Source: Escherichia phage phiD2-2
Direction: 5' to 3' (one strand)
DNA length: 49,337 nt
Sequence record: OR861627.1
How positions within the stretch are numbered: the first letter of the stretch is position 1; each line of letters begins with the position of its first letter. Below, one piece after another: positions 1 through 49,337 of the stretch. A program made the translations under genes and the position numbers. The notes under the pieces were generated by a model. The model ran no database searches, was not told where the DNA came from, and worked only from the letters and a program-made list of their open reading frames with translations.

Positions 1-39
1 GATTCATCTATCGTCCAGAAATGACAGGATCGCACTAAT
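1..39 (+). CDS. 3' end of an upstream gene truncated by the window edge
   Basis: Open frame from window start to TAA at about 37-39, with the stop inside the first boundary palindrome as at other gene ends. Confidence 0.3.
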
Positions 40-101
40 TGATAAAAACGCCCGAAGGGATTCGGGTATAGTAACCACATCGAAAACAAAGAGGATATAT
101 C
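29..101 (+). promoter_or_regulatory. gene-boundary cassette (degenerate palindrome, GC hairpin, TATAGT, leader)
   Basis: ATCGCACTAATTGATAAAAAC, CCCGAAgggaTTCGGG, TATAGT, CATCGAAAACAAAGAGG, ATG. Confidence 0.5.
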
Positions 102-1501: not shown

Positions 1502-1516
1502 GCCTCCTTTTCTTTT
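1486..1516. terminator. bidirectional rho-independent terminator between spanin and leftward operon
   Basis: A-run, stem AGGAGGCT/AGCCTCCT, T-run; both convergent genes end here. Confidence 0.7.
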
Positions 1517-1856
1517 ATGCATCTGCCCACATGTAACTCTCGTTAGTGAGTTTTGCATATTCTCGAACTTCAAACTCGCAAGTGTCACCGTACATCTCAG
1601 CAACCTTCTTCTCGTTAGCTACCGCTGATTCTTCGGTCCACCCATCAGCTTTACTGTAAAGAGTAGGAATCTCACTGCTAGTACCGTTTGAGTGATTGTA
1701 AACGCGAACTACTAAAAATTTGTTAGCCGTGATGTTTTCCTTCAGGTCGTTTCGTTTCGATGAAACAAATATACCCGATGCGAGATCGGGTGTTTTAACA
1801 AAAAGTGCTATTTGTACCTTTTTACGTGAAGGAGTAACTCCCCCTCCTTGTCGCAA
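1515..1856 (-). CDS. hypothetical protein; true start unclear
   Basis: Track ORF starts at a TTG; a boundary cassette lies inside the ORF at 1792-1810 and the codon at the expected start position after its AAGGAA RBS reads ATC, not ATG. Confidence 0.3.
   Translation of the reverse strand: MRQGGGVTPSRKKVQIALFVKTPDLASGIFVSSKRNDLKENITANKFLVVRVYNHSNGTSSEIPTLYSKADGWTEESAVANEKKVAEMYGDTCEFEVREYAKLTNESYMWADA
1714..1810 (-). promoter_or_regulatory. gene-boundary cassette lacking a canonical start codon
   Basis: TAGCACTTTTTGTTAAAAC, hairpin, TATATT, ATCGAAACGA, AAGGAA, then ATC where ATG is expected. Confidence 0.45.
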
Positions 1857-1919
1857 AGATTATGCTCGCTTTCGTTACTGGCCCTCATTGAAGTGAGTAA
1901 CAGACTCAACAACCCTTGC

Positions 1920-2331: not shown

Positions 2332-3900
2332 TTAACCCATCAGCCGAGGATTAATGAAAACAATATCATCAATCCGGCAAGTGTAGTTCATCTCTTCGAG
2401 CGTGATAAGAAGACTATCGATTCGCTCAGATACTTTCTGTTGACCGTTGAAAGGCGTAACGTTCCGGCACTTTGCAACGATGCTATGAATAGGTGCGCGG
2501 CCTTTGTTTTTCTTCGCGATCTCAGTGATAACATCAATCAGCTTACGAGATTCAGCCTCATCACCAGCATACCCGGCAGCGCTGGCAGACGACAGATAAG
2601 TCCTGGAAAGCTCATTGAAGATCATGATTGCTTCCTGCATTGTTTCAAGGTCAATCTCACGGTTGGAACGGTTCGGTGATTCACCCTCCCAATTCTTGAT
2701 CGTGTGGAGAACTGAAGCAATACGCAAGGCGTGCTTATCGAACTTGCCGAGATGACCGCGTAGCATTGAGTGAGAGTATTTCCCACCTGCGGCGAAATCC
2801 GGTTCCATCGCCTGACGCGCAAGGTTTAATTCACGCATAGCATTACGGCTTACAGAGAGAACAACGTTTTCCTCCTTCATGATGTTGTGAACGAGTCTGT
2901 AATATTTGCTAACCAGTCCTCGATCGACTTCTTTATACAATGCATCACCATTTTCATCACAAAGAATACGAGTACCTAAAAGCGGTTCCTCGCGAACTAA
3001 CAGGAAGCGCTCAGATACACCGATACCTCGTTGGCCTGCGTCCATGATACCTTTGATTGTTTCATCCTGCGCAATTACGCAGATCGAGCCAACCGGGCAA
3101 AGAGACAAGTTGTTGTCCTGATTGGAGCGAGCGACCTCCATATGGTTTTTATCCCACGCCTTAAGAATAAGCTCACTGTTAGATTTCTTATCTGAACCTC
3201 CATACGTAAGACCGAGCAATGTATTGATTGCCGTTGCCTCATCAGAAATTACGGAAAAGTGGCCCTGAACAGCGGCTACTTTCGCAAGACCTTCAGGTGT
3301 AGGATCTGATACAGCAAAAACAATATCAGCCATCTTTTTGATCTTCTCTTCCAGTTTTTCTTTGTCCTCGTATAGTGCCGCAGTCGTGTTTCCTTTAGGA
3401 TCATTCTTGATTTCCTTCTCAACCTGGCGTAGCTGACTGGTTAAACGAATACGTTCCTTTTTGCGCTCTTCATTCAGTCGCTGAATCTCCGCACGCATAG
3501 GTGTAATCGCCGCTGAGTTAATCGCGGACTTACCTGTTGATGGTGGCTGGCTGATTACCATGTAAAGCGCGGTCGGCTGTTCCTCTCCGTGATATTGCAC
3601 CCAAAACTTCCCGAGCATCGCGGCTGAGATGCAACCTATAAAATGAGCATACGCGGATGAAACCGGGAACTGGACTGATTCAGCTTTTGCTTTTGCATAT
3701 TCGAATACCAGGTTATCGCCACCTAACGAAATCAGAGGGAACTTATCGTTGCCGCTATTGATATCGATCGGATCTTGCCAAAATGAAACTGAGTCACCAT
3801 AGCTGTTTTCACGAATTGCGATCGCCACCGGATTAACTCCAGTGCTATTGGCGATCTCAATAATCTGTTGGTAATTCAGTTTTGGCTTAATATTAAACAT
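2332..3900 (-). CDS. P-loop NTPase, DUF3987-like putative replication/helicase-associated protein
   Basis: Walker-A-like PPSTGKS, long coiled-coil insert, acidic VISDEAT Walker-B-like stretch; ATG (MFNIKPK) preceded by AAGGAG. Family assignment is from memory of the architecture. Confidence 0.45.
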   Translation of the reverse strand: MFNIKPKLNYQQIIEIANSTGVNPVAIAIRENSYGDSVSFWQDPIDINSGNDKFPLISLGGDNLVFEYAKAKAESVQFPVSSAYAHFIGCISAAMLGKFWVQYHGEEQPTALYMVISQPPSTGKSAINSAAITPMRAEIQRLNEERKKERIRLTSQLRQVEKEIKNDPKGNTTAALYEDKEKLEEKIKKMADIVFAVSDPTPEGLAKVAAVQGHFSVISDEATAINTLLGLTYGGSDKKSNSELILKAWDKNHMEVARSNQDNNLSLCPVGSICVIAQDETIKGIMDAGQRGIGVSERFLLVREEPLLGTRILCDENGDALYKEVDRGLVSKYYRLVHNIMKEENVVLSVSRNAMRELNLARQAMEPDFAAGGKYSHSMLRGHLGKFDKHALRIASVLHTIKNWEGESPNRSNREIDLETMQEAIMIFNELSRTYLSSASAAGYAGDEAESRKLIDVITEIAKKNKGRAPIHSIVAKCRNVTPFNGQQKVSERIDSLLITLEEMNYTCRIDDIVFINPRLMG

Positions 3901-6309: not shown

Positions 6310-6495
6310 TTAGAAGAAAGATACGTAATTTGCAATACCTTTAGCGTCGTCGTTAGGCATTGCCTTGATAGCCAGGTCATAACCAGCCTCGACCTTTTGC
6401 CTTGCTGATTCTTCGCTGTATCCCCATATAACCAGAATTTTAACTACGTTTTCTTTGTTCAGGACTTTAAGGTCTTTAGTGATGCGACGTGACAT
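6310..6495 (-). CDS. hypothetical protein (about 61 aa)
   Basis: Track ORF 6310..6543 starts at GTG; internal ATG (MSRRITKD) has GAGGAA 8 nt upstream and fits the cassette leader. Confidence 0.5.
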   Translation of the reverse strand: MSRRITKDLKVLNKENVVKILVIWGYSEESARQKVEAGYDLAIKAMPNDDAKGIANYVSFF

Positions 6496-6573
6496 TTTGT
6501 TTTTCCTCAATCTCGTTTCGATGAGGTAATTATGCCAAATCACACCGATCGAGTTTTAACAAAAAATGCTATC
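6496..6573 (-). promoter_or_regulatory. gene-boundary cassette
   Basis: ATAGCATTTTTTGTTAAAA, TATAAT, TACCTCATCGAAACGAG, GAGGAA. Confidence 0.5.
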
Positions 6574-6712
6574 AGCAATCGCTTTGAAAAATCCACGAGG
6601 ATATAAGGAACGTATCAGCTTCGTTTTGGCAGACTTGCCGCCCAGCTTGTTTTGCTGTGCAGAGTACCCGTCAGGCAGGCTTACAGGTTTTCTCTCGGGC
6701 ATGACAAAATCG

Positions 6713-7261
6713 TCAGAGGTCCCAAAGACAAGTTTTCTTCGGGTAAGCATCTCGCGGCGCAATATACATCGGGAACCAGGGGTGTGAGTCATTCTCAGGA
6801 AGATAGCCGCCATACTCCCAGGGATTGAAGGAGTGATTTGGTTTTCTCCACGCAGACGACAGGGCGCTCACCGGATTCTCAATGATGTAAGTCACGCCCA
6901 GGCTATCTCCAATGTTCGCAGCAATCCGGGCACTAGCGACAGCCTTCTCCTGGAATAACGGATCGCGTTCACGCTTGCTGGCAAAGTGTCGCGCACCACT
7001 AACAGCCAGGTCAGTGCACGGCGGGAAAGCCATAATGAAATCCGGCTTGCCATACACGCCAGCGATAGCATCACGTTCGAACGTTTCATCAATGAACACG
7101 TTCACATACTCAATGTTCGGATGCTCCACTCTGGCATTGTACTTTTCGTAATCTCCGTGATCGGCTCCGTCAAAGTTGAAGCACATCACCTTATGACCTT
7201 GCTTAGCCAGTTCATGACCTGCAAGACCGGAACCGTCAAATAGCGACCAGATTAATTTCAT
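6713..7261 (-). CDS. DNA cytosine-C5 methyltransferase-like protein, unusually short (182 aa), possibly frameshifted
   Basis: Motif I-like LFDGSGL, motif IV-like FPPCTDLAVSG (PC dipeptide, Q replaced by T), motif VI-like IIENPV; AAGAGG RBS. Overlapping frame 6556..6813 carries an RRKLVFG stretch that resembles motif VIII. Confidence 0.5.
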   Translation of the reverse strand: MKLIWSLFDGSGLAGHELAKQGHKVMCFNFDGADHGDYEKYNARVEHPNIEYVNVFIDETFERDAIAGVYGKPDFIMAFPPCTDLAVSGARHFASKRERDPLFQEKAVASARIAANIGDSLGVTYIIENPVSALSSAWRKPNHSFNPWEYGGYLPENDSHPWFPMYIAPRDAYPKKTCLWDL

Positions 7262-7470
7262 TTCGTTACCTCTTTGAATACCGTCTGCCCGTTATTGGTC
7301 AGGAAGCGATCCCATCCATTCATTGAGCGGAAAACGCCGATCTGATTTTGCTGATTGTCAGTAGCGAAGTACCCACCATCAATAAGGTAGATCTCATACA
7401 CTGATTGATTCGTGAAGCTGTCGGTGCTAACGCTAATGCATTGCACGGCACATTCAAATTTTGGTTCCAT
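7258..7470 (-). CDS. hypothetical protein (70 aa), first gene of the leftward early operon
   Basis: Track ORF preceded by CCAATCAGAGGAAT leader and cassette; stop overlaps the methyltransferase-like gene start. Confidence 0.55.
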   Translation of the reverse strand: MEPKFECAVQCISVSTDSFTNQSVYEIYLIDGGYFATDNQQNQIGVFRSMNGWDRFLTNNGQTVFKEVTK

Positions 7471-7546
7471 TGCGTGATTCCTCTGATTGGTTGATGAGGT
7501 GAATCATACCCGATCGGCAGGACTGATGTGTGGCAAAAAATGCTAT
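7471..7546 (-). promoter_or_regulatory. gene-boundary cassette heading the leftward early operon
   Basis: ATAGCATTTTTTGCC, TATGAT, CATCAACCAATCAGAGGAAT leader. Confidence 0.5.
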
Positions 7547-7615
7547 TCCAATAGTTGCTCATTATTCCACCAGCAATGGAATATCTGGAATAATTGCGAT
7601 CCCGATTGATCTAGA

Positions 7616-7690
7616 ATGATGAAATGTGATTGTTGCATGATGTGCAACTGTTGATGTGATTGTTGCTTGGAATGCAATGATTGTGAGAGG
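7616..7690. repeat. tandem operator-like units (GTGATTGTTGC with TTGCA-N5-TGCAA inverted repeat)
   Basis: Two about 30-bp units; first contains perfect TTGCATGATGTGCAA. Confidence 0.5.
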
Positions 7691-7733
7691 GAGGATCTAG
7701 TGTTACCCGGTTCGTCTGGTAGTCATCTCCATT

Positions 7734-7753
7734 TTTAGCAAAAAGTGCTATCG
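7734..7753. repeat. boundary palindrome copy at the edge of the AT-rich hub
   Basis: TTTTAGCAAAAAGTGCTATC. Confidence 0.5.
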
Positions 7754-8154
7754 ATTACACTTTACCTTGTCACGGATGTAATATTTGTCTAGAATCGCAC
7801 TTGTGACAAAATTACACACTGTGACGCCTCTAAATATACATATAGATATATGTATCTATATAATATATATAGTGTTTTTTTTATTTATATATATAGATAA
7901 TTATATTGTAATAGTTGTGTATAGTTGTCTTACATTGTCTAGCGTACTGTTGGCATATTTCTATCTGCATGTTTATATATACAGTACTTTTTTGAGAGCT
8001 ATATATTTCTATAGTGACTCTAGACAGCTAGACAAATGTTACACGGCTTAAAATTGGCTCGCAGGCATTGACAGCTCTACATCGCAATGTCACAATGGCA
8101 ATTGTTGGCACATTATGACACCATTTACACACGAATAGACAAAGAGGGTATATT
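7754..8154. promoter_or_regulatory. AT-rich divergent control hub 1 with GTGTAA/TGTCTA-type repeats
   Basis: Alternating TA tract (7840-7910), TTGTCAC/GTGACA repeats, GTGTAACATTTGTCTAG in reverse orientation near 8027-8046, TTGACA near 8069. Confidence 0.5.
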
Positions 8155-8670
8155 ATGAGCAACACCAATCAGGAATTAAAAATCACCGATATGATTCGAC
8201 TAACCTGCGATGCAATGTATCGCGACAAAGGCATGAATGAGTTCTCTTTCGTGGCTGATGATATGGCCCTCGAGGCCGCGCGATTCTACTTCCGTGACCA
8301 GGAGGTAAGTGATAGCGATCTTGAATCTGCCGCTGCCGGATGGGTGGACCAGAACCAGGGTGAGGTGGAGAAGCGATTCAAGTCTGCTTTCATTACGCCA
8401 ATCATTACCCGGCACTTTTGCAAGTATGGCAAGGTGGCAAAGGTGAAGGTAGGCCGGAATGACGCTGCAATCACAATGATAACGGTTATCGTTACCGACG
8501 AAGAGATTCCCGTGAAGAAGCGCCGCAGCCGGAAAAAAGTTAGCCTGGCCGACTGCCTGGATTCGTTTGATGTTGATGTTGGCAAGCTATCGGATAGCGA
8601 GTTAATGGTTCGCGACGTGAATGAGATCGTACGCCAGATGAAAGCACATATCGAAAAGTGCGGGCTGTAA
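8155..8670 (+). CDS. hypothetical protein (171 aa), first rightward early gene
   Basis: Track ORF with AAGAGGG RBS; acidic patches. Confidence 0.6.
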   Translation: MSNTNQELKITDMIRLTCDAMYRDKGMNEFSFVADDMALEAARFYFRDQEVSDSDLESAAAGWVDQNQGEVEKRFKSAFITPIITRHFCKYGKVAKVKVGRNDAAITMITVIVTDEEIPVKKRRSRKKVSLADCLDSFDVDVGKLSDSELMVRDVNEIVRQMKAHIEKCGL

Positions 8671-8684
8671 CGCTGATAGGTGAA

Positions 8685-8760
8685 ATAGCACTTTTTGTTA
8701 AAGCCCGGTCGAGCGGATCGGGTATTATCTTCTCATTGACACGATACAGAGGAATCGAAG
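8685..8760 (+). promoter_or_regulatory. gene-boundary cassette
   Basis: ATAGCACTTTTTGTTAAAG, hairpin CCCGG..CGGG, TATTAT, CAGAGGAAT. Confidence 0.5.
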
Positions 8761-8955
8761 ATGGAAACGCAAATTGACGTAGTGGTTGTTCAGCGAGACT
8801 CAACTCATGAAAAGGGTCTGTTCAAGAAAGGAACCGAAATCACGATCGACCTTGAGGATATGGTTGCGTATCACTCTGGCCTCACTTGGAACGTGGTGCG
8901 CGTAGGCAGCGACTACAAACTCAAAGGCTTTAACACTTACTTTGCGGAGGTTTAA
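8761..8955 (+). CDS. hypothetical protein (64 aa)
   Basis: Track ORF with cassette and GAGGAA RBS upstream. Confidence 0.55.
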   Translation: METQIDVVVVQRDSTHEKGLFKKGTEITIDLEDMVAYHSGLTWNVVRVGSDYKLKGFNTYFAEV

Positions 8956-8957
8956 TT

Positions 8958-9428
8958 ATGGCGACAATTACCGTATTTCTTGCTAAAGATGAGCTTGATG
9001 GCGAAATGTCATTCTTCGCGTTTGAGCATAAAACCGGCTCGCACTGGCACACTTACAGCCATTACACGGTTATCTCAATTGAAGCGTACGACGGCGAACT
9101 GCTCACTGATAAACTGAGTAATTTCATTGAAGCCGTTAAAGCTAGCGGCGGCTGCGAGTGGAAGGAAGATCACGAAGTTATGCGAATGTTTGAGATGGTC
9201 AATCCGGTTCGCCTTGAGTCGTTCGAGCTTGATGCTAATGTGACTATCAAGGTGAGAAAGTCGGGTGAGTTATTGCCAGGGATGCGTGTACTGACTGGTT
9301 ACTCTGGCCGTAAGGTGTGGCGCACTGTATCCAAGATTCGCCAGCGCTCGGCAACATGCTATAGCGTATTCTTTGATGATGGTTGGAATATGATGTCCGG
9401 TAGTGAGGTAAAGTATCTCACCAAATAG
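8958..9428 (+). CDS. hypothetical protein (156 aa)
   Basis: Track ORF with GGAGG RBS; TAG stop lies inside the downstream palindrome. Confidence 0.6.
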   Translation: MATITVFLAKDELDGEMSFFAFEHKTGSHWHTYSHYTVISIEAYDGELLTDKLSNFIEAVKASGGCEWKEDHEVMRMFEMVNPVRLESFELDANVTIKVRKSGELLPGMRVLTGYSGRKVWRTVSKIRQRSATCYSVFFDDGWNMMSGSEVKYLTK

Positions 9429-13469: not shown

Positions 13470-14081
13470 ATGGATAAAATTACCATTTGGGGCCAGACTG
13501 TCAACCTGTTTCTAGGTACTCGCCGTGTGGCAATCTTTGACTTCGACGGAACGCTGAGTGACGGCTCAAAACGTCTTCACCTGCTACCGACAAAAGATTT
13601 GCACTTGACTGAAAGCTGGTCTGAGTTTAACCGCGCGGCAATATTTGATAACCCAATCCAAAGCACGATCGACGTAATGAACTCCATGTATGCCGCTGGT
13701 TATCATGTGATAATTTTAACCGGGAGAAGCGATGAGGTGCGTTACGCATCTGAGTTATGGCTTAAGCATCACGGCGCAAGATATGATTACTTAGTCATGA
13801 GGCCGCATACCGACAACCGCAAAGACACGGTAATGAAAGAAGAGGCGGTGCGCGCGATCGGCGTTGATAACATTCTGGCAGCTTGGGATGACTCACCGCA
13901 AATTATTCCATTATTCCGATCGCTTGGAATAACCACGTATGCCGTAGTTGACTATGGCGATAACGTTCACGATCATTTAAAATCTCACGGGGTGGATGAG
14001 GTTTGCAATCATGAACCATCTGAGCCGCTACCGCCATTTGGCGATAAAATATGCATTAAGTGCAAGGAGTTATTGAAGTGA
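13470..14081 (+). CDS. HAD-superfamily phosphatase, resembles the 3'-phosphatase domain of T4 polynucleotide kinase/phosphatase
   Basis: Motif I FDFDGTL, motif II-like ILTGRS, downstream NRKDTVMKEE and AWDDSPQII...VVDYGD; resemblance to T4 Pnkp C-domain is from memory. Confidence 0.6.
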   Translation: MDKITIWGQTVNLFLGTRRVAIFDFDGTLSDGSKRLHLLPTKDLHLTESWSEFNRAAIFDNPIQSTIDVMNSMYAAGYHVIILTGRSDEVRYASELWLKHHGARYDYLVMRPHTDNRKDTVMKEEAVRAIGVDNILAAWDDSPQIIPLFRSLGITTYAVVDYGDNVHDHLKSHGVDEVCNHEPSEPLPPFGDKICIKCKELLK

Positions 14082-40750: not shown

Positions 40751-40782
40751 AAAAATCCCCGCAATGCGGGGATTTTATCATT
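40751..40782. terminator. bidirectional terminator between SSB and side tail fibre
   Basis: A5, stem AATCCCCGC/GCGGGGATT, T-run. Confidence 0.7.
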
Positions 40783-42283
40783 TGGACTTCAACATTTTTA
40801 TCTCTTCTTGTAACTCTTCAACTTTCTTTATTGTATCCTGTAAAGCTCTCATAGTGTCAAGCAATAAAGGAGTTGTATCAAGCTCAAGCCTTTCAACTTT
40901 TGGCCCGTTTAGCTCGTGGCTCTCATACACCCTTCTCTTAACATATAGATTGTCGATCTCTTCTATCTCCTGAGCTATAACACCTCTCCTTACCCTTTCT
41001 TGCTCATCATCGTTAAATATAAAGTTCCTAAATCTCATTGATTTTATGTTGTTGTATGCAATGCTTGATTCATCATCCTTTATGCCGTGCTTTATATTTC
41101 TGTCAGATGCCGGAACCTGTTGGAAACTTCCAGCCCCTTGCGGTCCAGCGTAAGATATTTGCCCTGAAGCCATAAACCTGAAATGCATTTGCAGACCAAT
41201 ATTGCCTGCTCCATCCCTATCTTGAGTGCCTACTGATATTTGTGCCCTGGGCCATTCAGGATTACCCGTAGTCATCATGCCAAATGCTACGCCGCCAACG
41301 TATCCCTGACCTCTGGTGTCACACGATCCAGCAATAAGTGATTGATAGTTTTCAGCACCACTATCAGCGGTGTAAGCATTACCCTGGAAGCATGAAGCAG
41401 ACCACATCTGGTTGTAACCCATAGATGTTTTCTGGCATAAAAACTGATTAGCTCTGAATCTATTGTTAGTCTCGAAGTAGTTTGCCCCCTCATAAAATAA
41501 TAAAGCCCCAGCATAACCATTATCGCTACGTTCTTTTCTGACGTAAATACCTGGCGTAGATATTCCATCAGGTGACATAATCATCAATGATGACAATATG
41601 GACTGACTACCCCAGCTAGAACCGTCCCATGAATTCCTTCCTGCACCTATAGCGCCAGTGGTGTTAATAGCAAGAAAGTTAACAGCATCATTTTCACCTA
41701 ACCCAATATTTTTTCTTGACTCTTTTTTATCCTCAAGACCAGCTAAATTGCCATCCTTAGTTAAAAGATTTTCAGCATTGATGCTGTTAGCTGCGTCTTT
41801 TGCTTCTTGAGCACTTACCGCAGCCGCATCTTTTGAGCTTACCGCATCGTCACGCGCTAATTCAGCCTGATTTTGCGCAGCTTGAGAATCAGATTTCGCC
41901 TGATTCACATCAGCAACTATTTGCTCAAGTTTATTCATATCAAGCTGATTTATCAGGTCTATAGCTGCCGCAATCTCAGTCTCTTTGCTTTGATAGTATC
42001 GAAGAGTCTCGGCGACGTTTTGAGCTAATCCGTTAACGGTTAGAGAGTCATTAAGTAGGATCACATACTTACCGTCATCGGCAGTCTGACCATCAGTAGA
42101 GATAGCCTTTAATTCTGTATCACTAACGATATCGCTAATCACAGCTAGCTTAATTGGTTGCTCAAGGAACACGATAGTTGCACCTACGCGAATAAGAGCA
42201 AGCTGGTCTTTCCATTTTGTATCGGTTCCGTGAACCGTTCCGTCTGCATCCATTGATGCAGTACCGCGTCGATATAAAGCCAT
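40778..42283 (-). CDS. side tail fibre with C-terminal intramolecular chaperone (peptidase S74-like) domain
   Basis: 501 aa; coiled-coil N-terminal region, Gly-rich beta region, C-terminal PASDRNIKHGIKDD followed by helical segment. Confidence 0.7.
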   Translation of the reverse strand: MALYRRGTASMDADGTVHGTDTKWKDQLALIRVGATIVFLEQPIKLAVISDIVSDTELKAISTDGQTADDGKYVILLNDSLTVNGLAQNVAETLRYYQSKETEIAAAIDLINQLDMNKLEQIVADVNQAKSDSQAAQNQAELARDDAVSSKDAAAVSAQEAKDAANSINAENLLTKDGNLAGLEDKKESRKNIGLGENDAVNFLAINTTGAIGAGRNSWDGSSWGSQSILSSLMIMSPDGISTPGIYVRKERSDNGYAGALLFYEGANYFETNNRFRANQFLCQKTSMGYNQMWSASCFQGNAYTADSGAENYQSLIAGSCDTRGQGYVGGVAFGMMTTGNPEWPRAQISVGTQDRDGAGNIGLQMHFRFMASGQISYAGPQGAGSFQQVPASDRNIKHGIKDDESSIAYNNIKSMRFRNFIFNDDEQERVRRGVIAQEIEEIDNLYVKRRVYESHELNGPKVERLELDTTPLLLDTMRALQDTIKKVEELQEEIKMLKSK

Positions 42284-42383: not shown

Positions 42384-43319
42384 TTATAGTAGATCACTTG
42401 CTGAGAATAACTTAGCTTGCATTCCTGAGCGGTATCCTCCCTGATTCGGGATGATTATTTTTAATTGTCTGTCGTCTGCCATGTATAAAGTTTCTTTATC
42501 AGATGGTTCGCACGCCACCCTTACCTCCCGATCTCCCTTGTATCTGTACGCAACCATTTCTAGATTTTCAGGAGTGAAGCAGGCCCATACCTCTTGCTTT
42601 GTGTGAAATGCAATATGCTGAGCATCAATCCAATTAAGGCATAAGTAGATCGCTTTTTCAGTTTTACCAGTCACGGCAACCGAGCAACTTGTGTATTTCT
42701 TTGCATAAAATGACTCCCTACCCTCCTCATCAATAATCAAAATATTGCAAAACTCTTCATCAAGACCGTCCTCGTGTACAAGTTGACATGGTATGGTGTG
42801 AAATACACTCTCGCCGCCATCCTCTCGACGTTTTACGCCAACGTCGAATGATTCAGTAGGTAGCGACTCAAACATGCTTAGAGGTGTGTTTATGCGCTTC
42901 TCTGTGCGCTCCATAACTTTCATCACTGCCTCGTGTTCTGCCATCATAACATTGACGCCAGCTACCGGAGTTCTTCGCGCTTTTTTGTTGGCCTTGACAA
43001 TGTATTCCTGCGGAACCTTGCCGAGAAATCTTCCCAGGATATTTATACATTCGCTGTACGGCATACCAGTTAATTTAATCAACCAACCGACTCCAGAGTC
43101 GTTACCGCATGAGTTGCAGATCGCACCGCCGTCGCCCGGAGTGTTAAGGTTATCAGTCCAGCGAAAGCGGTCCTTACCCCCGCAGTTAGGGCAAGGTTGG
43201 TGTTTCTTATTAAAAACATCATTCGGCAATCCGCAGATTGATTGGAAAGCCTCGCGCCATAACCCCTTCATGTACGGCAAAACGTCCTCTTTCTGAAACA
43301 TCATAAATTCTTCGTTCAC
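42384..43319 (-). CDS. DNA primase (zinc-ribbon + TOPRIM-like)
   Basis: N-terminal CPNCGGKDRFRW...CNSCG zinc ribbon, acidic C-terminal half; followed by a leftward terminator. Confidence 0.6.
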   Translation of the reverse strand: MNEEFMMFQKEDVLPYMKGLWREAFQSICGLPNDVFNKKHQPCPNCGGKDRFRWTDNLNTPGDGGAICNSCGNDSGVGWLIKLTGMPYSECINILGRFLGKVPQEYIVKANKKARRTPVAGVNVMMAEHEAVMKVMERTEKRINTPLSMFESLPTESFDVGVKRREDGGESVFHTIPCQLVHEDGLDEEFCNILIIDEEGRESFYAKKYTSCSVAVTGKTEKAIYLCLNWIDAQHIAFHTKQEVWACFTPENLEMVAYRYKGDREVRVACEPSDKETLYMADDRQLKIIIPNQGGYRSGMQAKLFSASDLL

Positions 43320-43376: not shown

Positions 43377-43397
43377 TGTTTTAACTAAAAATGCTAT
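43377..43397 (-). repeat. boundary palindrome copy containing the HTH gene stop
   Basis: Leftward reading ATAGCATTTTTAGTTAAAA with TAA stop inside; terminator follows. Confidence 0.5.
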
Positions 43398-43833
43398 TGG
43401 TCGTCCCGATATCTTCCTTCTTCACGACGCGCATAAATTTCTTGTTCTTGCATCGCTTCTCAAGGCACTTGCCGTTACCGTCAAACTTCAGGTCGAATCG
43501 CAACCATGCGGCACGAAATCCTTTACACCCCTGTCGTCGGTAAGCACGATGCGCAGCTTCAGCACCTTGCCACGAAATCATGTTGCGTTCTTTCCAGCCT
43601 TGCACCGTCTGATTGCTAACCTTTAGAGCTTTTGCGCAGGCCGCAGGGCCACCATAATATTCGATAAGCGCATCAAGTCGCGCTCGCAATCCGGCGCGTG
43701 TTTCTTCTTTATGAATATAGAAGCCGCAGCGCTGTCGAGGCTTTTTATCTTTACCGCGTCGTGTTCCGTTGTTACCATTGATGTGACGTTTATCGATTTC
43801 ACCAGTTGACTCTGCGATACGTTGAATACTCAT
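43381..43833 (-). CDS. putative DNA-binding regulator (Cro/YdaS-like HTH plus Cys-rich C-terminus)
   Basis: AACAKALKVSNQTVQGWKERNMIS looks like a Cro/CI-type HTH; C-terminal cysteines suggest zinc binding; AGGAG RBS abuts a palindrome copy. Confidence 0.4.
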   Translation of the reverse strand: MSIQRIAESTGEIDKRHINGNNGTRRGKDKKPRQRCGFYIHKEETRAGLRARLDALIEYYGGPAACAKALKVSNQTVQGWKERNMISWQGAEAAHRAYRRQGCKGFRAAWLRFDLKFDGNGKCLEKRCKNKKFMRVVKKEDIGTTNSIFS

Positions 43834-43845
43834 CTTAATTCTCCT

Positions 43846-43932
43846 ATAGCACTTTTTGCTAAAAACGTTTACTGTATGCCGTGTATTATAGCGTAAACGT
43901 TACAACGATTCAAAGGATTAATAGACGTGACA
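43846..43932 (+). promoter_or_regulatory. divergent palindrome/cassette between HTH gene and helicase
   Basis: ATAGCACTTTTTGCTAAAAAC, hairpin AACGTTTAC/GTAAACGTT enclosing TATAGC, AAAGGA. Confidence 0.5.
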
Positions 43933-45945
43933 ATGAACATTAAAAAGCAGATTGCATTACTTGGCGAGGACTATATAAAGCGAACTCAGGAGCGATTCAC
44001 TGTCGGTGAGGTTGTTCCTTATCCGTACCAGGTTGTTGCTTATGCTGAGATCGCGAAACGCCTATCAAATTACGAGCATCCATTCTTTGTTAAAGCGTCA
44101 GTATCTGCTGGTAAGACCATCATTTTTGCTATGGTTGCAAAGCAGTGTCAGAAAATGGGCTTAAAAATGCTCGTTCTGGCTCGCCAGGGTGAGATTGTCG
44201 ATCAGGATAGCGAGGAGATTGACAACTTTGGGGTAACTAACTCCATATTCTCAGCCTCATTAGGTATTAAGTCCTGCTATTTTCCTATCGTGGTAGGCTC
44301 AGAGGGTACTGTTGCAAATGGCCTCGACAATGAGCTTGCTGATTTCGTCCCGCATGTAATTGGGATCGACGAATGTCACCAGGTGGATTGGGAAGACCTT
44401 GCGCAAGCCATTGAGGGCAAGGAAACAATGGAACAAATGAGGGGCGAGAAGGGAAAAATCATCATGGATGGAGATATTCCCCTGATTGGTAATGATGGAA
44501 AACCTTTGCTTGGGACTAAGCGCAGTCAGTACACAATCGTAATCATGGAAATGATGCGGCGCTGTAAAAAGGTTCACGGTCACGATCTCAGAATATTTGG
44601 TATGACTGGATCTGAATTTCGTGGCGTAGTTCCTATTCTGGTAGAGAATCCGAAAGCATTGGGATTCTGGCGTGAGCGAGTAACTGATATCGACACAAAC
44701 TATCTGATTGAGTTCGGTTCTGTTGTGCCGACAATATTCGGTTCAACAGACGGAGTTCATTACGATCTGGATAAGTTCAAGGCGTCGAGCGAGGACGGAG
44801 TGCAGGACTTTACAGAGAAAGACATGAAGGCTATGGAAGATGAGATCCTTCATGATAAATCTCTTACTCAGCGAATCATGCAAATGGTTGCCAAAAAGGC
44901 TGAAGAGCGTAACGCGGTACTGATTACATGTGCTGGTGTGCGCCACTGCAAAGAGGCAGCGGCAGCACTTCCTCCGGGAAGCACCTATGCAATTATTACT
45001 GGCGACACAGACAACAAAACGCGCAAGAAGATTCTGGACGATGTAAGGGCCGGAAAAATTAAATACACCTTTCAGGTAATGGCGCTCACTACTGGTGTTA
45101 ACGTTCCAAATTGGGATTTCAGTGTCATACTCCGCAAAATAGGGTCGCTCACACTGTTGATTCAACTTTTGGGTAGGGGTATGCGTCTGCTTAAATCCTG
45201 GCAGGTTGCTGAGGGAATGGTTAAGCAGGACCATCTGGTATGGGATTTCGCAGGTACGATGGATGAGTTGGGCCAGCTTTATTTCGATCCGATACTTGAG
45301 CAGGCGCAATTCCAAAAGCGTTTTGAAAACGGCAAAGATCCGAAAACATGTCCGAAATGCGGTTGCGTAAATAGCTTCTATGCTCGACGATGCGTTAATG
45401 TCATTGATGGTGAACGTTGTGATCATTTCTGGACTTCTCAGGTTTGTGAGGACCAGGTTGACGAGCGCACCGGAAAAATCCTTGTTAAAGGATGCGGCGC
45501 AGAGAATGACGTTGTGGCCAGAGTCTGTCGTTGCTGTGATGTTTCGCTTGTCGATCCTAACCTGAAGTTATCCGGTAAGGCGTACACTAAGAATGACTGG
45601 TATGAAGTAAAGAATTTTGAGGTTACGCTAACCAAAAACCAGAAAGGCATAATATACAAATACACTCTTATTAACGATGATGGTGATGAGTTCAAGGCGT
45701 ATGAAAAATTCTTCCCCGAGTCTGACTCTAAGATTTGCGGTACGCTATGGAAAACTAAAGGTGTATTGCCACACGTATCGGATCCTAAAATGCGCCGATA
45801 CTTTATCGGAATGAAGAACGCCATCAAGATTTTGCAATACTCACATCATATTGCTCACCCGGTGCGCGTAACTCATCGTCGCAACCAGAAGAAAGAAGAT
45901 ATTATCTCACGAAAAGACTTTGGTATGGAGGATATCCCGGAATGA
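43933..45945 (+). CDS. ATP-dependent helicase (SF2, DExH-type)
   Basis: Walker A SVSAGKTIIF, DECH box, C-terminal Cys cluster; track start 43927 is an upstream GTG. Confidence 0.8.
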   Translation: MNIKKQIALLGEDYIKRTQERFTVGEVVPYPYQVVAYAEIAKRLSNYEHPFFVKASVSAGKTIIFAMVAKQCQKMGLKMLVLARQGEIVDQDSEEIDNFGVTNSIFSASLGIKSCYFPIVVGSEGTVANGLDNELADFVPHVIGIDECHQVDWEDLAQAIEGKETMEQMRGEKGKIIMDGDIPLIGNDGKPLLGTKRSQYTIVIMEMMRRCKKVHGHDLRIFGMTGSEFRGVVPILVENPKALGFWRERVTDIDTNYLIEFGSVVPTIFGSTDGVHYDLDKFKASSEDGVQDFTEKDMKAMEDEILHDKSLTQRIMQMVAKKAEERNAVLITCAGVRHCKEAAAALPPGSTYAIITGDTDNKTRKKILDDVRAGKIKYTFQVMALTTGVNVPNWDFSVILRKIGSLTLLIQLLGRGMRLLKSWQVAEGMVKQDHLVWDFAGTMDELGQLYFDPILEQAQFQKRFENGKDPKTCPKCGCVNSFYARRCVNVIDGERCDHFWTSQVCEDQVDERTGKILVKGCGAENDVVARVCRCCDVSLVDPNLKLSGKAYTKNDWYEVKNFEVTLTKNQKGIIYKYTLINDDGDEFKAYEKFFPESDSKICGTLWKTKGVLPHVSDPKMRRYFIGMKNAIKILQYSHHIAHPVRVTHRRNQKKEDIISRKDFGMEDIPE

Positions 45946-46358
45946 TTACAGACAAAGGTGATTATTTAGAATTTTACGAGAGAGATCCAAGCGACACTCG
46001 AAAGGAGGACGCTCATCAGGTGGATTGTGTATCCTGGCTGAAATACAATTTTCCTCACCTTCTATTTTGGCACACTGTCAATGAAGGTGAAAAAACAATC
46101 ACATCGGCGCTCAGGGATGAGCAGGCCGGATTACTTAAAGGCGTGTCAGACTTCGTTATCCTGATTGGTGTTAACTCACGATACCCGTTTGCAGCAATCG
46201 AACTTAAGCGGGTTAATAAGTCAGGCAAAGGAAAGGCGTCACCAGTCAGCGACAAGCAAAGGGAATTTCTCCAAAAGGTCCGGGAGCGTGGCGGCTTCTC
46301 TGCCGTCGCATACGGATTCGGGCAATTCAAGATCGCAATTTACGAAATGATGAAATAG
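45942..46358 (+). CDS. VRR-NUC domain nuclease
   Basis: GVSDFVIL...AAIELKR...SDKQREFL spacing fits the VRR-NUC core; overlaps helicase stop. Confidence 0.6.
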   Translation: MITDKGDYLEFYERDPSDTRKEDAHQVDCVSWLKYNFPHLLFWHTVNEGEKTITSALRDEQAGLLKGVSDFVILIGVNSRYPFAAIELKRVNKSGKGKASPVSDKQREFLQKVRERGGFSAVAYGFGQFKIAIYEMMK

Positions 46359-46425
46359 CACTTTTTGTTAAAACTGCCGGGATGGAATCTGGCATTATTA
46401 TCTCACCAAAACGAGAGGAATAAAA
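46355..46425 (+). promoter_or_regulatory. gene-boundary cassette upstream of Dam
   Basis: ATAGCACTTTTTGTTAAAAC with the VRR-NUC TAG inside, hairpin, ATTATT, CACCAAAACGAGAGGAAT. Confidence 0.55.
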
Positions 46426-47139
46426 ATGAAAGACTTTAATGATATCGAAACTATCGACTTTGCAGAAACTGGTTGCTCATTCACTCGCGAAGCAATAGCA
46501 TCAGGCGGTTATTATCAGGCATTGAAAACGCCAACCTGCAAAGAGATTTCAGGGCGTCGATACAAGGGGACAAATACCCCTGACGCTGTTCGTGATTTAT
46601 GGTCAACCCCGCGCGAGGTTATCGCATACCTTGAGGGTCGTTACGGAAAATATGATCTAGACGCTGCGGCAAGCGAAGAAAATAAAGTTTGCGAGAAGTT
46701 TTATTCCCAGGAAACAAACTGCTTAAAACGTTGGTGGGGTAAAAATAAGCACGTATGGTTAAATCCTCCTTATAGTCGACCTGATATATTCGTCAAGAAG
46801 GCGATCGAGCAAATGGAGCACAACAATCAGATTGATATTCTGTTGCCTGCCGATAATTCCACAGCGTGGTTTACTGAGGCGAGACAGAACGCGGCTGAGA
46901 TTATCTGGATTGAAGCTGACTTGACTGAAGATATCGACGGTAACGAGTACGCCAGATCTGGTCGCCTGGCTTTCATATCCGGTGAAACTGGAAAGGCGGT
47001 TGACGGCAATAACAAGGGTTCGGTAATTTTCATAATGCGCGAACTTAAAGAGGGTGAGACACAGCAAACTCACTATATCCCAATCACAAGCATTTGCCCT
47101 TCGGTGAAAAACAAGCGCGCAAAAGTGAGGAAAGTATGA
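46426..47139 (+). CDS. dam: DNA N6-adenine methyltransferase (phage Dam family)
   Basis: WSTP, DLDAAAS and NPPYS motifs; own boundary cassette upstream. Confidence 0.75.
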   Translation: MKDFNDIETIDFAETGCSFTREAIASGGYYQALKTPTCKEISGRRYKGTNTPDAVRDLWSTPREVIAYLEGRYGKYDLDAAASEENKVCEKFYSQETNCLKRWWGKNKHVWLNPPYSRPDIFVKKAIEQMEHNNQIDILLPADNSTAWFTEARQNAAEIIWIEADLTEDIDGNEYARSGRLAFISGETGKAVDGNNKGSVIFIMRELKEGETQQTHYIPITSICPSVKNKRAKVRKV

Positions 47140-47387
47140 TGAACGAGAAAATGATTCCGGTTAAGTTAACTGATCAAGGTTTATGGCTGCTTTATCGAGC
47201 TACCTGCTGCGAAATCATGGAACAAAACGGATTGACGCAGGATGTTATTGGTTGCGATCTGTGGGAGTTCACTAGCTCTCTTGATATGTCTTTCGATGAG
47301 ATAAAAAATGAATACATAGAGAATTGGCCTTCAATCATACAGAGAGACGTAGAGGAACTTAAAGCTGATATGATCGTTCAGCACTAA
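47136..47387 (+). CDS. hypothetical protein (about 83 aa)
   Basis: Track ORF 47094..47387 trimmed to MMNEKM with GAGGAAA RBS. Confidence 0.5.
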   Translation: MMNEKMIPVKLTDQGLWLLYRATCCEIMEQNGLTQDVIGCDLWEFTSSLDMSFDEIKNEYIENWPSIIQRDVEELKADMIVQH

Positions 47388-47453
47388 TTGCTAAAACTAC
47401 CCGGCGAAAGTCGGGTATAGTTATTTCATCGAGACGAAATGAGGAATCAAAAG
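47379..47453 (+). promoter_or_regulatory. gene-boundary cassette
   Basis: CAGCACTAATTGCTAAAAC with TAA stop inside, hairpin CCCGGCgaaaGTCGGG, TATAGT, CATCGAGACGAAATGAGGAAT. Confidence 0.55.
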
Positions 47454-47663
47454 ATGGCACGCATTAACGCAAACTTTTTCAATATCGCTCAACAGTCCGC
47501 AAAAATGGCTGTTCATATCACTGACAAGAAAGGCGGCAACTTTGATTGGGATATTGCTATGAACTTCCTTAAAATGGCTTATTACCTCTGCTCAGTCAAA
47601 GATGTTGAGTGTTTTATTGAAAGCGTGGAGAAACCAACCAATGCTGATAAAAAAACAAGGTAA
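47454..47663 (+). CDS. hypothetical protein (about 69 aa)
   Basis: Track ORF 47439..47663 trimmed to MARINAN with GAGGAA RBS. Confidence 0.5.
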   Translation: MARINANFFNIAQQSAKMAVHITDKKGGNFDWDIAMNFLKMAYYLCSVKDVECFIESVEKPTNADKKTR

Positions 47664-47913
47664 ACGAGAGGTTTGGGATCACGCGAAGGAGTGCGGAATC
47701 TCAGACGATATAGCACTAATAGCAAAATATTTCGATATAAAGGATGTTAGCATCATCTCAAACGGAAAGATTTCATTTATGGAAGATATGCCGAGAAAAA
47801 TGCATAGAGTGCCAGCCACCCCATCACTTGAATTTTATCGTGAAGAAGGAAAGAGAATTGAGCGAGAACGAAAAACAGCAAAGAACAACAAGTCTTCCAG
47901 GCTTAAACATTAA
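47641..47913 (+). CDS. hypothetical protein (about 90 aa); start uncertain
   Basis: Track ORF 47602..47913 trimmed to the ATG after GGAG; overlaps previous gene. Confidence 0.35.
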   Translation: MLIKKQGKREVWDHAKECGISDDIALIAKYFDIKDVSIISNGKISFMEDMPRKMHRVPATPSLEFYREEGKRIERERKTAKNNKSSRLKH

Positions 47914-48145
47914 CGCAGAAGATTATCAGACTATCTGGATCGGAAAAAAGCAGGTTAAGAAAATCCCTTTCTCTGATTGGTTGCCTCCTGACTTCGTTAA
48001 TGTGCTTTGCACCATCGGTATGGAACAGGAGTTGCATATAGGTTATTACTCACCAGGTAGAAACAGCATAATGCTTGAGGTTGATGGGAAACTTGTTGAG
48101 TTTAAATCTTCAGATCTCGGATTCTGGTTAAAGGCTGTGGCATGA
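47744..48145 (+). CDS. hypothetical protein in the +1 frame, overlapping 47641-47913; start unresolved
   Basis: Track ORF; protein-like downstream half (DYQTIWIGKK...GFWLKAVA) but no good RBS at the listed ATG. Confidence 0.3.
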   Translation: MLASSQTERFHLWKICREKCIECQPPHHLNFIVKKERELSENEKQQRTTSLPGLNINAEDYQTIWIGKKQVKKIPFSDWLPPDFVNVLCTIGMEQELHIGYYSPGRNSIMLEVDGKLVEFKSSDLGFWLKAVA

Positions 48146-48223
48146 ATCTTTATTTTGCTGTAGTATTAACACCGCTAATTTCATTTTTAGTAATGTATTT
48201 CATTATCATGTAAGGATTAAAAT

Positions 48224-49337
48224 ATGTCACAAGCTAAAATCACTACCGAACAACTTGTCGAAGAGCGCATGAACGGCCTAACACTTCGCGAGATCGCGGA
48301 AAAGTACGGTATGCACATTCGAACTGTTGAAGCTCGCCACGCAAAGTTGGCAAAAGAAGGTCACTTCCACGGTAACGAGCATGTTGCTAAGAACGTACCG
48401 GAAGGATTCATGGTAAAAGGCACATCAACGATGATTCGCGGCGATGGGACCGAGGTGGTGCGCTGGGTTAAGACCGATCAGGACCGTGAGAAGATTGCAG
48501 CAATGATGGAAGCGGCGCGTATTGCATTCTGTGAAGATCTGCCGCGAGCAAAGCCAACTGAGCTACTAACCTCACAAGGGCTTACTACAGCGATGGGTAA
48601 GCTGGCACTCTATCCGGTATTCGATCTTCATATTGGCGCGCTTGCTCATAAGCATGAATGCGGAGAGAACTATTCTACCGATGTAGCGGAAAAAGTGCTG
48701 AGTGACTTCTTTAATTACGCGATCGATATTGCTCCGAACGCAGAGAAGGCTGTTCTGTTAATCGGCGGTGACTTCCTGCACTCTGACGGACTTGATGCAG
48801 TTACTCCGGCAAGCGGTCACGTTCTTGATCAGGATTCACGATATGCTAAATTGGTGCATGTAGCGATTCGATCGGTGCGACGAGCTATAGACAAAATGCT
48901 GACGAAACACAAAGAGGTCGAAGTTCAGGTTATCGAAGGAAACCACGACCAGGCCGGGATGATTTGGTTACGCGCAGCAATGGCAGCATACTATGAAGAC
49001 GAGCCGCGAGTATTCGTTGACGTCAGTCCTATGATTCTGCATAAGACTCGTTGGGGAAATACCTTGTTGGGATACACTCACGGGCACACTATGAAAAAGG
49101 CAGACACGCGACTTGCAGCGATGGCAGCAGATTTCCGATCGGATTTCGGCGAGAGCAAGTATGTGTATACTCATAGCGGGCACTGGCATCACCAGACAAT
49201 CACTGAGCACTCGCTAGGTATTGATGAAGTACACGGTCAGTTAGGCGCGAAAGATGCATACGCAGCACGCGGAGGGTGGCGCTCATATCGCCAGGCGGCG
49301 GTAATTGTTTACGATAAGCAGTTTGGTGAAATCGGTC
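48224..49337 (+). CDS. HTH-containing calcineurin-like metallophosphoesterase (SbcD/Mre11-like?), 3'-truncated by window edge
   Basis: AAGGA RBS; N-terminal HTH-like LTLREIAEKYGMHIRTVEARHAKL; phosphoesterase motifs FDLHIG, GGDFLH, GNHD, YTHGH, SGHWHH; frame open to window end. Confidence 0.6.
   Translation, partial: MSQAKITTEQLVEERMNGLTLREIAEKYGMHIRTVEARHAKLAKEGHFHGNEHVAKNVPEGFMVKGTSTMIRGDGTEVVRWVKTDQDREKIAAMMEAARIAFCEDLPRAKPTELLTSQGLTTAMGKLALYPVFDLHIGALAHKHECGENYSTDVAEKVLSDFFNYAIDIAPNAEKAVLLIGGDFLHSDGLDAVTPASGHVLDQDSRYAKLVHVAIRSVRRAIDKMLTKHKEVEVQVIEGNHDQAGMIWLRAAMAAYYEDEPRVFVDVSPMILHKTRWGNTLLGYTHGHTMKKADTRLAAMAADFRSDFGESKYVYTHSGHWHHQTITEHSLGIDEVHGQLGAKDAYAARGGWRSYRQAAVIVYDKQFGEIG

Follow-up and report, generated by a model that had tools for sequence, protein, structure and literature searches.

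A helix-turn-helix–metallophosphoesterase gene that spans the linearization point of the Escherichia phage phiD2-2 genome encodes a candidate Rad50-independent DNA nuclease

Mre11/SbcD is a nuclease that works together with Rad50/SbcC, and DP1 serves archaeal PolD as its small subunit, a proofreading 3'-5' exonuclease that is kin to the B-subunits of eukaryotic Pol alpha, delta and epsilon. A further described enzyme, PdeM or nuclease metallophosphoesterase (MPE; P. putida MPE, PDB 6nvo), is a ligase-associated endonuclease of the DNA-damage response. Here we compared with these enzymes a gene of Escherichia phage phiD2-2 whose product joins a helix-turn-helix (HTH) to a calcineurin-like MPE, and which lies in sequence record OR861627.1 (the whole 49,337 nucleotides (nt) analyzed are called the window below). 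The gene, its family, the HTH and the fusion of the domains are already known from public annotation, and the finding is in that respect an ordinary one. We consider it somewhat probable that the product is an HTH-tethered, Rad50-independent, Mn-dependent DNA nuclease of a replication/recombination operon.

The gene begins on the plus strand with the ATG at 48224, 7 nt after a Shine-Dalgarno-like AAGGA read from the sequence (48212-48216, +). Codons 1-371 and the first base of codon 372 fill window 48224-49337 (+) and run to the window edge, and a preliminary description of this DNA had accordingly called the gene 3'-truncated. This truncation is an artefact of linearization. The end of the window (...gaaatcggtc) and its start (gattcatcta...) are contiguous in Escherichia phage FCWL1 (PP558327.1; Tunavirus, Drexlerviridae) and in related phages, and therefore the open reading frame (ORF) continues through window 1-35 and the whole gene lies inside the window. 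Positions 1-2 close codon 372, coding continues to H383 at position 35, and a TAA stop follows at 36-38, such that the last 12 codons and the stop occupy window 1-38 (+). The full ORF beyond the edge was thus recovered as a protein of 383 amino acids (aa) that ends in ...GEIGRFIYRPEMTGSH, with the C-terminal GRFIYRPEM kept in the alignment of homologs. The 1,114-nt region at the window end is 100% identical to FCWL1 and 92-96% identical to many other T1-like phages; the matching FCWL1 gene, gp59, is annotated as a 'DNA repair exonuclease' (WYM30999.1, 1,152 nt) and is 100% identical in sequence. By BLAST, window 43834-49337 followed by 1-1516 is collinear with PP558327.1 35532-42551 with a single mismatch. 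The window is a linearized, circularly permuted T1-like genome with both ends inside this gene. An 80-aa, GTG-initiated ORF lies antisense within the gene (48968-49210, −); it is unsupported and most likely spurious.

The C-terminal part of the protein is the MPE domain (aa 122-371 at 48587-49337, +, carrying on at window 1-35 to aa 383). All five ordered motifs of the MPE superfamily (DxH, GD, GNH(D/E), H and GHxH) are found in it at the places reported in the preliminary description, and thus within the complete 383-aa protein. We scored their conservation in 50 homologs against P0001, a homolog 98% identical to the window protein; 48 of the aligned homologs are 31-42% identical to this reference and one is 67% identical. 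In motif I, D134-L-H136 (48623-48631, +), both D134 and H136 are invariant. In motif II, G182-D183-F-L-H186 (GDxxH; 48767-48781, +), D183 is invariant and H186 at least 90% conserved, and in motif III, G239-N240-H241-D242 (GNHD; 48938-48949, +), the same holds for N240 and H241 (invariant) and D242 (at least 90%). Motif IV, H286-G-H288 (49079-49087, +), has one histidine that is invariant family-wide, H286, and one that is invariant within the Drexlerviridae only, H288. Motif V, G319-H320-W-H322 (GHxH; 49178-49189, +), combines the invariant G319 and H322 with an H320 that is at least 90% conserved. Because this conservation extends over 50 divergent homologs, the motifs represent a conserved active site and not a chance resemblance, and enzymatic activity is therefore under selection. 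Judged by its residues, the active site is catalytically intact. The Pfam Metallophos profile matched the protein alone with E 0.023 and 15.6 bits, short of its 21.5-bit cut-off, matched 12 of the 50 homologs at E <0.01, and exceeded its cut-off in one of these relatives (P0144, 25.1 bits). The protein belongs to the calcineurin-like metallophosphoesterase superfamily (PF00149/PF12850). Two long conserved insertions are seen in the MPE part, one after motif II (aa 187-207) and one after motif V (aa 323-356).

To place this fold among known enzymes, we used an AlphaFold2 (AF2) model built on P0001. The shallow alignment gave a predicted local distance difference test score (pLDDT) of 69.5, and the 50-sequence alignment gave a pLDDT of 90 and a predicted template modeling score of 0.77. 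The model is laid out as an HTH, a hairpin with a helix, a linker, and then an alpha/beta sandwich from aa 122 to the C-terminus, which has the four layers of the MPE fold. The closest structural neighbor was the exonuclease PolD DP1 (5ihe; score 15.9 over 214 aligned residues), followed by T. maritima Mre11 (14.4), S. aureus SbcD (14.3), MJ0936 (13.8), LpxH (13.2), five further Mre11 chains (12.3-13.2), YfcE (12.7), Rv0805 (11.9), nuclease MPE (9.1; 22% identity) and PP5 (8.8-8.9). The model thus confirmed an MPE fold and placed nucleases at the head of the list, with a modest lead over small phosphodiesterases. A fold search of BFVD returned uncharacterized phage relatives only, several of them named 'DNA polymerase II small subunit' or 'calcineurin-like phosphoesterase'.

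Upstream of the MPE domain, the preliminary description had recognized an HTH-like segment of about 110 aa. An HTH is present, and it is confined to aa 8-44; the rest of the segment consists of a hairpin-helix module (aa 62-103) and a linker (aa 104-121). The three-helix HTH (48245-48355, +) is of the sigma-70 region 4 or LuxR/GerE type according to Pfam, PDB matches, the AF2 model and the homolog P0215. On the protein itself the Pfam matches were sub-threshold (Sigma70_r4_2, E 0.01, aa 15-38; HTH_23, E 0.012) and the PDB sequence matches, to EsrB/SsrB/GerE, were weak; in the model the helices span aa 8-16, 21-27 and 32-44, with blocks of pLDDT 93-96 over aa 11-40. P0215, which carries two HTHs, scored above the curated cut-offs for both Sigma70_r4 and HTH_11. 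The module that follows, a predicted beta-hairpin (aa 62-86) and helix (aa 88-103; together 48407-48532, +), is conserved family-wide, and P59, G75 and W81 in this region are at least 90% conserved in the 50 homologs. The linker (48533-48586, +) is the least conserved part and carries indels in an alignment of 22 Drexlerviridae homologs; it also has the lowest pLDDT blocks. All 50 homologs have 101-270 residues ahead of the MPE domain, and the family consensus keeps the 'AxxLG' signature of the HTH. Individual members matched different HTH classes (Fis HTH_8, Sigma70_r4(_2), LysR HTH_1, MarR and HTH_23), which, together with the universal N-terminal extension, fits the retention of DNA binding as such.

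Sequence profiles gave a full-length match to one family and fainter matches to known enzymes. The protein is a member of PHROG 704, 'DNA repair exonuclease' (E 4.9e-157; residues 4-380 on positions 2-389 of a 390-position profile), with a second, weaker match to PHROG 284, 'exonuclease'. The name of PHROG 704 is a computational label for which we found no experimental basis. Since PDB searches with the full-length profile were dominated by weak HTH matches, we trimmed the profile to the MPE domain and searched 177,635 PDB sequences. Nine matched at E <=10, all of them Mre11/SbcD or nuclease MPE: Mre11/SbcD entries at 0.005-0.015, two more Mre11 at about 1.4 and nuclease MPE (PdeM) at 1.4. In the hmmsearch alignment, motif I ('tDaHlGmlaw') stands opposite 'SDWHLGVTSW' of T. 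maritima Mre11, and motif II ('llGDflHydslepv') opposite 'LTGDLLHSRNNPSV', which holds the GDLLH of the same protein; the spacing of the histidine at D+3 in motif II is that of Mre11. With NCBIfam, the protein had sub-threshold matches to sigma-70 and PdeM only (TIGR04123, 13.1 bits against a cut-off of 150). PdeM was also matched, again sub-threshold, by 15 of the 50 homologs (best E 2.5e-4), and no other enzyme family was matched by more than one of them. Using hhalign, the MPE-only profile aligned to the single E. coli sequences of SbcD, CpdA, YfcE and LpxH with probabilities of 0.2-6% (1.3% for SbcD) over short, motif-only stretches, single-sequence templates being weak ones.

We next considered the genes around the MPE gene. 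The preliminary description had placed it after a helicase, VRR-NUC and Dam cluster, and this is correct: the helicase (43927-45945, +) and the Dam methyltransferase (46426-47139, +) were identified from the ORF list, the FCWL1 annotation and PHROGs, and the VRR-NUC gene (45942-46358, +) by Pfam VRR_NUC (E 4.7e-14). Three small plus-strand ORFs with no assigned function (47136-47387, 47439-47663 and 47744-48145) intervene before the MPE gene, and all of these belong to one rightward gene block. Downstream lies a standalone gene for a 58-aa SH3-like DUF7244 protein (102-278, +; Pfam E 2.2e-28; PHROG 4788; PMC13164509), the last before a hairpin that resembles an intrinsic terminator (300-331, +; an 11 base-pair stem, then TTTTT) and separates the SH3 and holin genes. 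This hairpin is predicted to fold with −18.2 kcal/mol (z = −3.9), and Klebsiella phage Skenny has a terminator annotated at the equivalent place. On these grounds we assigned the MPE gene to the replication/recombination unit; a place in the lysis cassette, which the module described in PMC13164509 might suggest, was rejected given the strong terminator-like hairpin. The MPE and SH3 genes thus appear to be transcriptionally separate from the lysis cassette with which they are usually grouped. A second, GC-rich hairpin, CCCGAAGGGATTCGGG, lies at window 51-66, 13 nt past the stop of the MPE gene; its fold is not significant (z = −1.7), it has no T-run on the plus strand, and it is terminator-like when read on the minus strand. 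An Rfam scan of the region found no RNA family.

The genes for DNA enzymes annotated in FCWL1 include a RecE-like exonuclease VIII, an Erf-type recombinase, a primase, two helicases and VRR-NUC, and its 78 products include no Rad50/SbcC, ligase, 5'-kinase or DNA polymerase. Only the helicase, the tape measure protein and a tail fiber exceed 600 aa among the ORFs. At window 13470-14081 lies a T1-like 'polynucleotide kinase' gene with a DxDGT HAD motif and a Pfam HAD_PNKP match; corresponding HAD_PNKP genes were seen in two other loci (L012, 5160-5648; L018, 8176-8757). Of the two halves of T4 Pnkp, this gene has the 3'-phosphatase and lacks the kinase, which makes its usual product name misleading. 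The idea that the MPE supplies a missing 3'-phosphatase to a kinase-only 'polynucleotide kinase' was dropped, because the latter gene already encodes the HAD 3'-phosphatase part.

To examine how widely the gene is distributed, we searched a profile of the 22 Drexlerviridae homologs against 1.84 billion cluster representatives (50%-identity clusters). This returned 5,414 matches at E <=1e-3 and 1,364 at E <=1e-30, most of them 370-420 aa long and end-to-end. By tblastn, 2,021 of 50,697 phage records contain a homolog; the taxa include Drexlerviridae, Dhillonvirus, Jerseyvirus, Casjensviridae (Rhodobacter phages), Rhizobium phage 16-3 and Vibrio phages, with a distant match in an N4-like Ruegeria phage. 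The module of the gene has been reported in 508 of 522 Drexlerviridae, among which the gene is treated as a persistent marker (PMC13164509). Depositors have named homologs 'DNA repair exonuclease', 'phosphoesterase', 'transcriptional regulator', 'sigma70_r4_2 domain-containing', 'HTH domain-containing' and 'DNA polymerase II small subunit'. The annotation of several records from Jerseyvirus and Shigella phages divides the homolog into two or three coding sequences (CDS), with the HTH and MPE parts apart (homologs H45, H48, H52, H56 and H69; BFVD A0A411AVF9 and A0A411AVG4); frameshifts, true splitting of the gene or mistakes in annotation could each account for this. Two records of 44-47 kb labeled 'Campylobacter phage' (MG065671.1 and MG065688.1) are 67-71% identical in nucleotide sequence to the gene; such similarity would not be expected of Campylobacter phages and suggests that the genomes so labeled are Drexlerviridae-like.

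The neighborhoods of these homologs showed two recurring themes, namely DNA or nucleotide enzymes as neighbors and a location at the border of replication and late genes. In the Webervirus Skenny, the MPE gene is followed by a HAD 3'-phosphatase (annotated 'polynucleotide kinase'), a deoxynucleoside monophosphate (dNMP) kinase, the terminator and holin, and in a PolA podovirus contig, whose homolog is 42% identical, it stands between Endonuclease VII and HAD_PNKP genes, the latter followed by a dGTP diphosphohydrolase-like (dGTP_diPhyd_N) gene. A T4-like contig has the order flap endonuclease, one intervening gene, PIF1-type helicase, MPE and MazG-like gene, and another contig has a primase-helicase, two small genes and an MPE that faces lysis genes. 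In Dhillonvirus JL1 the gene lies between lysis genes and TerS and TerL; in Vibrio phages it precedes the head genes, near an HNH gene and endolysin genes; in RcPeripeteia it comes last, after holin and endolysin; and in marine and other metagenomic contigs it ends the structural operon. Jerseyvirus genomes carry it in a small opposite-strand island among tail genes, and phage 16-3 in the early region, with a separate NinI-type phosphatase three genes downstream. Among Drexlerviridae without the SH3 gene, the commonest downstream neighbors are 'polynucleotide kinase' and dNMP kinase (PMC13164509).

The preliminary description had offered a nuclease, a phosphatase or a 2',3'-cyclic-nucleotide phosphodiesterase. 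The architecture and the intact site it relied on stand, and of the functions offered the nuclease is the best supported and the other two less so: the structural neighbors DP1, Mre11 and SbcD, the MPE-only PDB matches, the PdeM matches and the N-terminal extensions all favor it. Further support comes from the DNA or nucleotide enzymes that adjoin the homolog in several lineages (the window, the PolA podovirus, the T4-like and primase-helicase contigs and Webervirus) and from the terminator-like hairpin after the next gene, which sets the unit apart from the lysis genes. T1 degrades host DNA, and T1-like phages encode no DNA polymerase and package by a headful mechanism. As a nuclease, the protein would be expressed from the helicase/VRR-NUC/Dam gene block, and its HTH would keep the enzyme on DNA, with the flexible linker joining the HTH and hairpin-helix module to the MPE. 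The MPE, probably with two Mn2+ as in its relatives, would hydrolyze phosphodiester bonds of DNA at ends, single-stranded regions or hairpins, and would do so without a Rad50/SbcC ATPase. Most likely it would serve phage DNA metabolism, whether through the trimming of replication and recombination intermediates ahead of headful packaging or through assistance in the breakdown of host DNA for nucleotide salvage.

Several observations weigh against the nuclease. At E about 0.005, the matches to PDB sequences are marginal, and they span motifs I-II only, and we found no biochemical or genetic data for any family member in the literature. HTH domains can serve regulation instead of substrate tethering. 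The position of the gene differs by lineage, and in several phages it closes a structural or lysis operon; context therefore does not fix the role. As the phage already has a RecE/Erf pair and VRR-NUC, it is not evident why it would require a further nuclease. We regard as possible, if rather doubtful, the broader proposal that the protein represents a very large clade of Rad50-independent nucleases of HTH, beta-hairpin and MPE architecture, with a catalytic domain structurally nearer to archaeal PolD DP1 and Mre11 than to any bacterial housekeeping MPE. Such a clade would comprise 5,414 or more 50%-identity clusters and 2,021 sequenced phages, and wherever we examined context the homologs were in phages or phage-like contigs. 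If it exists, it would stand for a distinct core activity of phage DNA maturation, for example a trimming, directed by site or structure, of concatemers or of host DNA, and for a possible evolutionary relative of the polymerase B-subunit/DP1 lineage. The gene belongs to the small set of non-structural genes that persist in Drexlerviridae, and it turns up again in many unrelated tailed phages. A gap in our view of DNA handling by T1-like phages would close once it is known what this HTH-tethered Mre11/DP1-like enzyme cuts without a partner, and an established function would replace guessed annotation in thousands of phage genomes.

Other functions were weighed against these data. The MPE might instead heal the ends of broken DNA or RNA. 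It would then be a 3'-phosphatase or a 2',3'-cyclic phosphodiesterase, would resemble the MPE module of Clostridium thermocellum Pnkp, and would repair host-nuclease damage alongside the phage HAD-type 3'-phosphatase. We hold this to be unlikely, although the MPE gene directly adjoins a HAD_PNKP gene in two unrelated lineages (Webervirus and the PolA podovirus contig), the commonest downstream neighbors in SH3-less Drexlerviridae fit it (PMC13164509), and the ligase-associated repair enzyme PdeM shows a weak affinity with it. In phiD2-2 itself the HAD_PNKP gene is far off, at 13470-14081, the annotated genome is without ligase or 5'-kinase, and with a dedicated 3'-phosphatase already present the MPE would be superfluous at this step; moreover, the slot between the MPE and lysis genes may be a mere hot spot for accessory genes. 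Slightly less probable still is an anti-defense phosphodiesterase, in which the MPE would degrade host immune signals (cyclic oligonucleotides, cCMP/cUMP or gcADPR-like molecules) and the HTH would be accessory or autoregulatory. A PADLOC search of the protein gave no match, its nearest neighbors in sequence and structure are nucleases and not cyclic-nucleotide phosphodiesterases, the DNA-binding domain is kept family-wide, and the neighboring genes encode DNA enzymes. Anti-defense genes typically show a patchy accessory distribution. The gene studied here is, on the contrary, a persistent core gene, as the 508 of 522 Drexlerviridae show (PMC13164509).

The resemblance of the N-terminus to sigma-70 region 4 and LuxR/GerE also raises the question of a transcription factor for the late (lysis, packaging and structural) genes, with the HTH binding promoters or RNA polymerase and the MPE being auxiliary or sensing. 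The gene repeatedly borders late operons (in the window, Dhillonvirus JL1, Vibrio phages and elsewhere), and some depositors label the homolog a 'transcriptional regulator'. Yet the catalytic residues are invariant or nearly so throughout the family, which indicates that catalysis is the selected function, and the HTH types vary among members, which argues against a single conserved promoter or polymerase contact; some viral entries, furthermore, seem to consist of the MPE alone or to have the parts in separate genes. No repeated operator came to light, although none was searched for. We judge this explanation as improbable as the anti-defense one. Least credible, and in our opinion very improbable, is a protein phosphatase of the lambda-PP/NinI type that reprograms host phosphoproteins. 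It would belong to the same superfamily, MPE protein phosphatases are known in phages, and Rhizobium phage 16-3 does have a NinI-like phosphatase, encoded separately from the homolog; in our protein, the PPP signatures GDxHG, GDxxDRG and GNHE of lambda PP/NinI were not found.

Some further features of the window came to light. PP558327.1 is not a plain rotation of the window: every minus-strand gene of the window is reverse-complemented in place while the intergenic spacers are unflipped (for example window 1514-1857, 1920-2327, 2332-3900, 40778-42283, 42384-43304 and 43381-43833), and a few small blocks of window 6310-9428 are also shuffled. The in-place flipping explains why all 78 CDS of PP558327.1 are listed on the plus strand. 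This layout looks like a deposit artefact, the window having the natural T1-like arrangement. Beside the primase, a 501-aa 'hypothetical protein' (40778-42283, −) carries a C-terminal Peptidase_S74 (endosialidase chaperone) domain and is probably a lateral tail fiber located inside the replication region. Between the divergent primase and helicase genes, a 150-aa ORF (43381-43833, −) has a sub-threshold match to a Cro/YdaS-like HTH (P22_Cro, E 4.4e-5) and may encode a regulator at a divergent promoter region.

Returning to the described systems, we compared the protein with each of them by its defining features. The preliminary description had suggested an SbcD/Mre11-like end-processing nuclease, and the likeness holds for the fold neighbors and for the motifs, since the DxHLG, the GDLFH-like GDxxH and the GNHD of Mre11/SbcD are shared when the protein is aligned to T. 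maritima Mre11. The likeness ends there. The phage has no SMC/Rad50-like partner among the 78 annotated products; the best profile match, E 0.005, is not significant; and the C-terminal capping domain and the Rad50-binding helices of Mre11 are missing, as the MPE part is 262 aa long and ends the protein, which leaves no room for them. Conversely, Mre11 lacks the N-terminal HTH and beta-hairpin module. PolD DP1 is the closest structure, at 13% identity, but its partner DP2/PolB has no counterpart in the phage, which has no DNA polymerase gene in its annotation, and in place of the DP1 oligonucleotide-binding (OB) fold the protein has, by predicted secondary structure, an HTH, a beta-hairpin and a helix, which do not make up a full OB fold. 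PdeM is the nearest enzyme in NCBIfam, though its curated cut-off is not reached. Because these defining features were tested and are missing, the protein is not a member of SbcD/Mre11, DP1 or PdeM; it may nevertheless work like them. Its full-length likeness is to PHROG 704, the same gene being annotated in FCWL1, RefSeq Tunavirus, Webervirus, Dhillonvirus, Jerseyvirus and phage 16-3.

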